Positions 2,761 through 3,577 of a stretch of 14,720 bases of DNA are shown here, piece after piece. The notes under the pieces were generated by a model that was not told the origin of the DNA, did not search any database, and saw only the letters and a program-made list of their open reading frames with translations. Made by a program: the position numbers and the translations under genes. The DNA is from a virus. Its lineage: Duplodnaviria > Heunggongvirae > Uroviricota > Caudoviricetes. Location: IMG/VR virus record IMGVR_UViG_2877285697_000005; one strand, written 5' to 3'. The first letter of the stretch is position 1. Every line of letters starts with the position of its first letter.

Positions 2761-2958
2761 ATGGTTGCTGTAAATCATATACCACACCTTGTACACACAC
2801 AAACGGCCTTTGTGTGGCGTTTTCTGGCCCTGAGTGCCGGAGAATCTCAAATCATCCACGTAACCGCCTGGACGGAACGCGAAGCGCGTAGCCGTTGCCC
2901 GTCCGGTTGTGTTGCTGTATTCGCCGCCCGTATTCGTCAGGAGGTGTGCCATGCCTGA
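2761..2958 (+). CDS. Possible small leader ORF (doubtful)
   Basis: 65-codon ORF with GAGAGG upstream of the ATG at 2761. Its stop overlaps the next gene start (ATGCCTGA). Composition is Cys/Arg-rich and atypical, so low confidence. Confidence 0.2.
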   Translation: MVAVNHIPHLVHTQTAFVWRFLALSAGESQIIHVTAWTEREARSRCPSGCVAVFAARIRQEVCHA

Positions 2959-3271
2959 CATGACCAATTACCAGTACCTGATTAATCCGCATTTTAACTG
3001 TGAGCATGATATTGCTAAAAAGGTTTATTCTGCTGCGGATGCGGCTACTGACAATATATCAATGGCTGTTGCGTCAATTGGTAGCCTGATGTGGTATGCG
3101 TCAGAAAATGAGGAATATGACGAAAAGGCCATGCGCATTGATATGGGTAATATCGGTTTGTTACTGGCATTGCTTGGACATTTTGATATTTCGTTACGGT
3201 GCACCATTGAAAATGCCACAGATGCATTAAATGCTATAAAGAAAGCGAATACTGATTCAAATCGGGGATAA
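2951..3271 (+). CDS. Hypothetical protein, unknown function (accessory)
   Basis: 106-aa ORF from the ATG at 2951, preceded by a strong AGGAGG (2939-2944, 6-nt spacer). The track's upstream start at 2909 lacks a Shine-Dalgarno. No family recognised. Confidence 0.6.
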   Translation: MPDMTNYQYLINPHFNCEHDIAKKVYSAADAATDNISMAVASIGSLMWYASENEEYDEKAMRIDMGNIGLLLALLGHFDISLRCTIENATDALNAIKKANTDSNRG

Positions 3272-3277
3272 ATAATC

Positions 3278-3577
3278 ATGAGAACATATTTATCTGGCTT
3301 GACTGCCAGCGGTTATGCACACCACAAAATTATCCCCGGCGCTATTTATCTGGATAAGAACGGTAACAGAGTAACGGTAAAAGAACTGATGTTTGACCGT
3401 GTTTATTTTATCCGTGATGGATATTCATTTCTTAGTTCGCTGAACGTGGAGATCTTTATTAGCAGATTCAGGCGGGAAATCCCGCTTTCCAGAAATAACC
3501 ATGTGTCATGTATCGATGTTGATAAAAAACTACAGGAACTGAAAAACATGATTGCCGCGTGGAGAGAGCAGAAATGA
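3278..3577 (+). CDS. Hypothetical protein, unknown function (accessory)
   Basis: 99-aa ORF with GGGGA Shine-Dalgarno. Its stop TGA overlaps the ATG of the primase gene (ATGA coupling at 3574-3577). AT-rich by eye. No family recognised. Confidence 0.6.
   Translation: MRTYLSGLTASGYAHHKIIPGAIYLDKNGNRVTVKELMFDRVYFIRDGYSFLSSLNVEIFISRFRREIPLSRNNHVSCIDVDKKLQELKNMIAAWREQK

Follow-up and report, generated by a model that had tools for sequence, protein, structure and literature searches.

Two conserved small genes before rep in a capsid-forming satellite: a divergent RgdR (DUF4222) relative and an acidic family linked to Icd-like genes

The icd-like to rep operon and its host element

The stretch of DNA analyzed here, referred to as the window, comprises the 14,720 nucleotides of the IMG/VR virus record IMGVR_UViG_2877285697_000005 (Caudoviricetes), in which two small open reading frames (ORFs), named ORF106 and ORF99 after their lengths in amino acids, lie immediately upstream of the replication gene rep (Table 1). 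A previous sequence-only reading had singled them out, and it was confirmed that both exist at 2951-3577 as described, that their translation signals are good (AGGAGG at 6 nt and GGGGA at 9 nt before the respective ATG) and that they are AT-richer than their neighbors, with about 40% versus 51-55% GC (ORF106, 40.2%; ORF99, 40.7%; icd-like, 55.1%; rep, 50.9%; whole window, 50.6%). That reading had counted only two genes between regulation and rep, missing a gene for an Icd-like protein whose end overlaps the start of ORF106. The overlap between the Icd-like stop and the ORF106 start amounts to 8 nt, ORF106 and ORF99 are separated by a gap of 6 nt, and the ORF99 stop overlaps the rep start in an ATGA junction (3574-3577). 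The 8-nt overlap and the ATGA junction indicate that icd-like, orf106, orf99 and rep constitute one tightly coupled operon. ORF106 and ORF99 thus appear to be the second and third of four genes in a translationally coupled early operon, the AlpA-dependent early/replication unit, with the AlpA dependence being taken from the published biology of phage-inducible chromosomal islands (PICIs), in which AlpA turns on the island genes upon helper induction.

It was also considered that one or both ORFs could be non-coding chance open frames in an AT-rich spacer. ORF length by itself is modest evidence of coding: when the region was shuffled (n=5000), one open stretch of at least 99 aa arose in 7.6% of the shuffles, which speaks for chance, whereas two such stretches arose in only 0.28%. 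Additionally, Shine-Dalgarno sites and coupled starts and stops are found for both ORFs, ORF99 carries a Pfam domain at 60 bits, and ORF106 homologues reach down to 21-39% identity with a conserved motif. Substitutions, evaluated by comparing the window with three related islands, favored the annotated frame, clearly so in the case of ORF106, for which the comparison with island L002 gave 6 synonymous and 6 non-synonymous changes in frame versus 1/10 and 0/11 out of frame. A weaker contrast was seen for ORF99, with a ratio of non-synonymous to synonymous substitution rates (dN/dS) of 0.30 in frame versus 0.51 and 0.59 in the alternative frames. Overall, this ratio was 0.1-0.8 for ORF106, 0.2-0.5 for ORF99 and 0.04-0.17 for rep, values that derive from few substitutions. 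The cassette was found at 94-98% identity in 474 of 5426 complete Escherichia coli genomes, 471 of which carry both genes, and all 40 records sampled from the 474 list an Icd-like, a hypothetical and a DUF4222 protein, accompanied in 39 of them by a primase-type or DUF927 rep. Since the families are conserved, dN/dS is below 1 in frame and the cassette is conserved in E. coli, both ORFs can be regarded as real, conserved genes, and their origin as chance frames as effectively refuted.

Judged from its gene content, the element carrying this operon is a capsid-forming PICI (cf-PICI) satellite of the EcCIEDL933/CP-933C kind, EcCIEDL933 being the cf-PICI prototype, also known as CP-933C, O-island 51 and Sakai Sp7. 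This assignment was made from ORFs and Pfam domains, from the annotation of 98.5%-identical islands and by comparison with EcCIEDL933/Sp7; besides int, alpA and rep, the window was found to code for SSB (single-stranded DNA-binding protein) and, all within ~15 kb, its own full HK97-type module (major capsid, protease, portal, connectors, HNH, TerS and TerL). The closest complete genomes belong to enterohemorrhagic E. coli (EHEC) O26 strains, with 98.5% identity across 99% of the window. The right end of the window (14556-14720, minus strand) contains the start of a membrane-protein gene, which the flanks of the 98.5%-identical O26 islands (L004) identify as the disrupted autoinducer-2 (AI-2) transporter gene tqsA, so that the island is inserted in tqsA there. 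The PerC/Pch-family gene is the counterpart of pchE in Sakai Sp7, and, as an RgdR-like and a PerC-like protein are both present, the island encodes two small proteins from families known as regulators of the enterocyte effacement locus (LEE).

In the intergenic region upstream of the operon, a TTGACG hexamer (2629-2634) adjoins a perfect 12-bp inverted repeat, which represents a candidate operator or promoter of the operon. A consensus promoter scan found no plus-strand promoter-like site in the region of this repeat. In the regulatory region, Rfam returned nothing at gathering score and only sub-threshold, chance-level matches, and the presence of a C4/CI-like antisense RNA or of another RNA family was rejected on this ground. 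A 379-aa ORF (1819-2958, plus strand) in the program-made ORF list was recognized as an artefact that runs antisense over the YlcI/YnfO gene and over a 57-aa gene annotated in relatives; in related islands, coding annotation covers only its last 65 codons, which are the Icd-like gene.

Table 1. Positions of the features discussed, in window coordinates unless another locus is named
Feature	Position	Strand	Basis and remarks
Integrase	1-1218		ORF and domain annotation
AlpA	1573-1761		ORF and domain annotation
YlcI/YnfO-family gene	2262-2567	-	NCBIfam YlcI_YnfO_N (1.7e-17) and RefSeq annotation; divergent, at the border of the regulatory intergenic region
Perfect 12-bp inverted repeat GTGTGTTTCATG-N9-CATGAAACACAC	2634-2666		Read from sequence; ylcI/icd-like intergenic region
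Icd-like gene, 65 aa, basic	2761-2958	+	NCBIfam phage_ICD_like (5.8e-18)
Shine-Dalgarno AGGAGG	2939-2944	+	Read from sequence; 6 nt before the ORF106 ATG
ORF106, 106 aa	2951-3271	+	phrog_15327 (7.6e-70); ATG 2951, stop 3269-3271
ORF99, 99 aa, RgdR-family (DUF4222)	3278-3577	+	Pfam PF13973 (1.6e-16); ATG 3278, stop 3575-3577
rep, primase-helicase (D5_N, DUF5906, Pox_D5), 605 aa	3574-5391	+	Pfam; phrog_864 DNA primase (4e-193)
Rep N-terminal domain	3574-3944		Also L005 28600-28978 and the rep genes of L007, L008, L014 and L016
PerC/Pch-family gene	6262-6540	+	Pfam PerC (2.9e-44)

The families of ORF99 and ORF106

The two ORFs had been described as matching nothing recognizable, which proved wrong for ORF99. 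ORF99 matches Pfam DUF4222 (PF13973) over residues 17-67, with 60.1 bits against a cut-off of 27 bits, and it also matches phrog_285; DUF4222 matches as a whole amount to 730 clusters. It is a basic protein (isoelectric point, pI, 9.72; net charge +6) that aligns over its full length with ECs1581, known as RgdR (30% identity, E 2e-12), and on these alignments it is a divergent RgdR (DUF4222) paralogue. RgdR was described as a 99-aa basic protein of O-island 51 that acts as an activator of LEE1 and type III secretion and as a repressor of motility, increases the binding of Congo red and has only a weak, non-specific affinity for DNA, with an RGD tripeptide at residues 20-22 that gave the protein its name and matters for the stimulation of type III secretion (Flockhart et al. 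2012, PMC3378721). The proteins tested in that study were only ECs1581, C1493 and ECED1_1787, and its Table S2 additionally lists ECO26_2322 (99 aa, 'IPGA', 29%), which was not tested there (PMC3378721). ORF99 carries no RGD motif and has P20-G21-A22 in its place, 'IPGA' corresponding to residues 19-22; its type is already listed in the literature as the IPGA paralogue ECO26_2322. It was also reported that RgdR is encoded in all analyzed E. coli PICIs (Fillol-Salom 2018).

In the AlphaFold2 (AF2) model of ORF99, built on a 21-sequence alignment, a beta-barrel spans residues 20-67 at a predicted local distance difference test score (pLDDT) of ~90; strands were modeled at 23-56, and residues 78-98 form a C-terminal helix. 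The barrel (residues ~20-67) is predicted to be Tudor/SH3-like and to be followed by a conserved C-terminal helix, and the full-length architecture, consisting of an N-terminal tail, the core at residues 20-68 and the C-terminal helix, was found in ORF99. Sequence searches of the PDB with the family profiles of ORF99 and ORF106 returned nothing below E 0.08.

ORF106 is an acidic protein (pI 4.66, net charge -7) without a Pfam, NCBIfam or PADLOC match, its only match being phrog_15327, a family of unassigned function. A HMMER profile search of 1.84 billion cluster representatives gave 21 matches, among them ~10 full-length remote relatives of 96-105 aa with 21-39% identity, while two tetratricopeptide (TPR)-repeat matches, P0059 and P0071, were judged to be spurious local resemblances. 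The family motif, IGxLMFWAxxNExY...DMxxIGxLL, is present in ORF106; G44 and G69 are invariant and Y56 and D64 near-invariant in the family alignment, and all members are acidic (pI 4.1-5.0). The AF2 model of ORF106, which was computed from a five-sequence alignment and is of low confidence (pLDDT 59.6), contains helices at residues 19-52 and 58-104, and a fold search with it yielded only generic helical hairpins, none of them at E <= 0.001. ORF106 is described here as an acidic, predicted two-helix protein.

Regarding genomic context, nine remote members, the window group and a Xenorhabdus member (L009) are located in islands with int and AlpA genes, 0-3 genes upstream of rep, and most islands of the family show capsid genes within the fetched stretch. 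The accompanying rep genes belong to four architectures (DUF927, D5/DUF5906, AAA_25 and Toprim-AAA_25). Two members open the early-left operon of a prophage, beside the repressor gene. It was verified that an Icd-like ORF is found near the ORF106-family gene in 12 of 13 independent loci, with one weak case (L009, E 0.0022); the thirteenth locus is an 885-bp contig, too short for this test. These neighborhoods link the ORF106 family to Icd-like genes, whose products are labeled 'host cell division inhibitor Icd-like protein' in RefSeq and which in the window encode a protein of pI 8.7. In these islands, the slot between icd-like and rep is occupied by one to several small acidic proteins, helical by eye, and the last small gene is basic in the four arrangements where it is a DUF4222 gene or encodes a 115/122-aa protein.

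Position before replication initiators and possible functions

The DUF4222 ORF was found immediately upstream of the initiator gene in 12 of 14 satellite and lambdoid-phage loci, usually overlapping its start, and one small gene intervenes in the other two. Among satellites, it directly precedes rep in the window, L001, L002, L004, Sakai Sp7, Shigella L007 and Buttiauxella L006, with the same 4-nt overlap in the first six of these. The intervening small gene occurs in Erwinia L008 and Xenorhabdus L009, and in the latter it is a member of the ORF106 family. The same order is observed in the lambdoid phages SfIV, vB_EcoM-720R4, ST101-KPC2phi6.3, vB_EcoS-733R5, vB_VIPKPNMC05 and Morganella IME1369_02, and in the K-12 prophage e14, where a DUF4222 ORF of 59-73 aa lies between the cII or ymfL-ymfM genes and the replication initiator; in the loci whose ORF coordinates were read (SfIV, e14 and IME1369_02), it overlaps the initiator start. 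The initiators that adjoin DUF4222 have unrelated architectures (D5_N/DUF5906, DUF927, Toprim-AAA_25 and HTH_36/DnaD-like). A tblastn search of 50,697 phage records with the window proteins gave no match, and it took ECs1581 or the short Xenorhabdus form as query for the phage ORFs to surface. A scan of genome contigs with the DUF4222 alignment returned only 4 loci because the method is pattern-based.

The DUF4222 ORF of SfIV (L018:3938-4159; Pfam 3.2e-19) has an unannotated counterpart in e14 (L020:5002-5181, corresponding to NC_000913.3 1204001-1204180; Pfam 8.6e-19), which lies out of frame within ymfM ('cell division inhibitor YmfM'), in its 3' half, and overlaps the start of ymfN/oweE by 11 nt. 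The region of overlap differs between e14 and SfIV by 4 substitutions, each of which is synonymous when read in the DUF4222 frame and non-synonymous when read in that of ymfM. A corollary of the broad and rather improbable reading of DUF4222 given further below is that, in the 3' half of ymfM, the frame under constraint is that of DUF4222, whose product might contribute to phenotypes ascribed to YmfM.

Comparison with Sakai Sp7 (L005) revealed a mosaic structure, as similarity to the window breaks off at 2954 and starts again at 3533; identity in the flanks is 88-96%, but ECs1578-1581 stand in place of 2955-3532, and the rep core is exchanged as well, being of the D5 type in the window and of the DUF927 type in Sakai Sp7. 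Of the two breakpoints, the left one falls at icd-like's 3' end and the other inside rgdR, so that the last ~15 codons of rgdR travel with the 5' end of rep, and its C-terminal helix stays with the Rep N-terminal domain. Nucleotide identity between the window and Sakai over 3533-3944 is 71%. It was found that D5-type and DUF927-type satellite Reps have a common N-terminal domain of ~125 aa (MKxAPNxK...IIFAGSDAW...VPP...), the remainder of the proteins being different. In different E. coli genomes, the window-type cassette (at least 95% identity) precedes either a D5-type or a DUF927 rep. A strict co-variation of RgdR subtype with Rep type was rejected, considering that the ECs1581 type occurs with DUF927 (Sakai) and with a D5-type rep (L007), and the window-type cassette with both.

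The reading favored here, in which about even confidence is placed, combines a coupled early operon with ORF99 as an initiator-coupled cofactor and ORF106 as a protein-binding modulator; the mechanisms it proposes reach beyond what was shown above, namely that the genes are real, to which families they belong, and their synteny, conservation, class of fold and charge. As DUF4222 lies directly upstream of the initiator and usually overlaps it, ORF99 is probably made together with the initiator, and it could act at the onset of the element's replication as a small cofactor that binds DNA or protein, in which case the effects published for RgdR with regard to LEE, motility and Congo-red binding would be side-effects exerted in trans on the host. 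ORF106 would bind and neutralize another protein, whether of the host, of the helper or an Icd-like partner, and would be neither an enzyme nor a sequence-specific DNA binder. Several observations weigh against this interpretation. Homology assigns no biochemical activity to ORF106 or ORF99, the RgdR variant of the window has PGA and not RGD, the model of ORF106 is of low confidence and its fold search gave no match at the threshold mentioned, and the dN/dS of both small genes, albeit from few substitutions, is well above that of rep. DUF4222 also stands beside several unrelated initiator architectures, arguing against one specific initiator contact, with the exception that contact could run through the ~125-aa N-terminal domain common to satellite Rep proteins. 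Moreover, it was reported that deletion of ecs1581 lowers type III secretion in uninduced EHEC (PMC3378721), which implies that RgdR is expressed and active without island replication, and such activity fits a host-directed regulator at least as well.

In fact, ORF99 could be mainly a host-directed global transcription modulator without a role in replication, whose place beside rep would reflect expression timing only; it would bind RNA polymerase or nucleoid proteins (H-NS, Ler) through the Tudor-like barrel or the basic helix, as RgdR appears to. The phenotype of the ecs1581 deletion without island induction makes this an almost equally likely rival, if a tentative one. Tentative as well is the proposal, anticipated in the sequence-only reading, that both genes are swappable cargo, or helper-interference or anti-defense genes, in a hotspot between regulation and replication. 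The segment is AT-rich, other small genes take its place in similar islands (with the breakpoints at 2954 and 3533), the slot proteins are mostly acidic and helical, like many phage inhibitor proteins, two ORF106 homologues sit in prophage early-left operons, the usual place of host-takeover genes, and purifying selection is relaxed relative to rep. However, PADLOC contained no families at E <= 0.1 for ORF106, ORF99 and four neighboring genes, which led to the rejection of a known anti-phage defense system and left the suggested interference or defense function without homology to any such system; neither P4 epsilon nor P4 Cnr proved homologous; and the alternative Sakai cassette likewise ends in an RgdR gene. 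DUF4222, reported in all analyzed E. coli PICIs, is syntenic with initiators even in phages, so that ORF99 is core and not cargo, and the location of both genes in the early replication operon argues that neither is free cargo. The slot is indeed variable, as the other small genes of Sakai Sp7 attest, and a cargo or interference role is possible for ORF106 and unsupported for ORF99. No homology to housekeeping replication accessory proteins was found for either gene, and conservation across related islands is clear.

An unlikely alternative, drawn from gene neighborhoods, is that ORF106 and the Icd-like protein are dedicated partners, with ORF106 serving for instance as an acidic protein that counteracts or modulates a basic inhibitor of cell division, and that the pair times division arrest while the island replicates. 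In the 12 loci counted above, the distance to an Icd-like ORF is no more than ~1 kb, the window genes overlap by 8 nt, and the charges are opposite (pI 8.7 versus 4.7); against this, Icd-like genes occur without ORF106 in Sakai Sp7, L006, L007 and P4, and several islands have another small acidic gene between the two. A broader version of the initiator-coupled reading, similarly improbable, would make DUF4222 a general initiator-coupled factor of enterobacterial temperate phages and satellites, with the C-terminal helix of the 99-aa RgdR docking on the ~125-aa N-terminal domain of Rep, and ORF106 a new Icd-linked family of early inhibitors.

The finding is mostly an ordinary one, consisting of two conserved small genes of a mobile genetic element, one of them already named. 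RgdR has so far been known only as an EHEC virulence regulator, its native role in the satellite life cycle having never been defined, and three results, namely the position of DUF4222 before initiators including that of e14, the occurrence of the same cassette with different Reps and the breakpoint within rgdR, present it no longer as supposed virulence cargo but as a part, open to testing, of a PICI/lambdoid replication module. With the ORF106 family comes a reasonable candidate for an inhibitor, encoded by the satellite, of some function of the host or the helper. Any phenotype would matter widely, given that ~9% of complete E. coli genomes carry the cassette. Among the new points, the most useful are the synteny of DUF4222 with initiators, the link of the ORF106 family to Icd and the hidden DUF4222 frame of e14.

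Comparison with Sakai Sp7, lambdoid phages, P1 and P4

The closest characterized counterpart of ORF99 is ECs1581, which is likewise a basic 99-aa protein with a DUF4222 core at residues ~20-68, a SGLTASG-like N-terminal tail, K35 and a C-terminal helix ending in K, and whose gene, in a satellite of the same kind, lies directly upstream of rep and overlaps it by 4 nt. They differ in having RGD versus PGA at residues 20-22 and a net charge of +12 versus +6 in ORF99, and in context, since ECs1581 is followed by a DUF927 rep and preceded by ECs1578-1580, whereas ORF99 is followed by a D5-type rep and preceded by ORF106. The short DUF4222 ORFs of lambdoid phages and e14 share with ORF99 the same barrel domain and the same position, but they are without the N-terminal tail and the C-terminal helix and are often unannotated; their initiator is HTH_36/DnaD-like and not a primase-helicase, and the DUF4222 ORF overlaps ymfM out of frame.

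In the immI operon of phage P1 (c4 RNA, icd, ant), an Icd-type ORF runs into the start of the gene that follows, and translation of the two is coupled. The window is similar in that its Icd-type ORF overlaps the next gene, and different in that this gene encodes a 106-aa acidic helical protein and not the large Ant antirepressor, and in that Rfam finds no C4-like RNA.

The left (alpha) operon of satellite P4, comprising an Icd-like ORF, epsilon, orf151, cnr (also called ORF106; DUF5375) and the alpha primase-helicase gene, has a layout like that of the window operon. Of its small genes, epsilon controls helper derepression and Cnr controls copy number. Cnr is also 106 aa long and encoded just upstream of the primase, but no BLASTP alignment was obtained between it and window ORF106 or ORF99, neither of which matches Pfam DUF5375, whereas P4 Cnr does; the equal length is a coincidence. 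Epsilon (PF25738) gave an hhalign probability of 0.1% and no Pfam match in the window ORFs, and ORF106 was rejected as a relative of P4 epsilon or ECs1580 (0.1-0.2%) and is unrelated to P4 orf151. The N-terminus of orf151 (L003 7440-7895, minus strand; GEIYRS...DG...PLGRFLREF) resembles the DUF4222 motif with a 24-aa insertion, a resemblance that is unproven; as a DUF4222 relative, orf151 was set aside (hhalign E 0.014, probability 3%) and is a lead, not evidence. The resemblance to P4 is one of architecture and not of family membership. The Icd-like gene does extend to P4: a hidden Markov model (HMM) built from the island Icd-like proteins matches P4 at 8171-8821 (minus strand), in the old 'cI ORF137' region, with an E-value of 1.8e-15. 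Consequently, an Icd-like leader is common to P4 and PICIs, for which only AlpA, Pri-Rep and Int had been listed as common elements (Fillol-Salom 2018).

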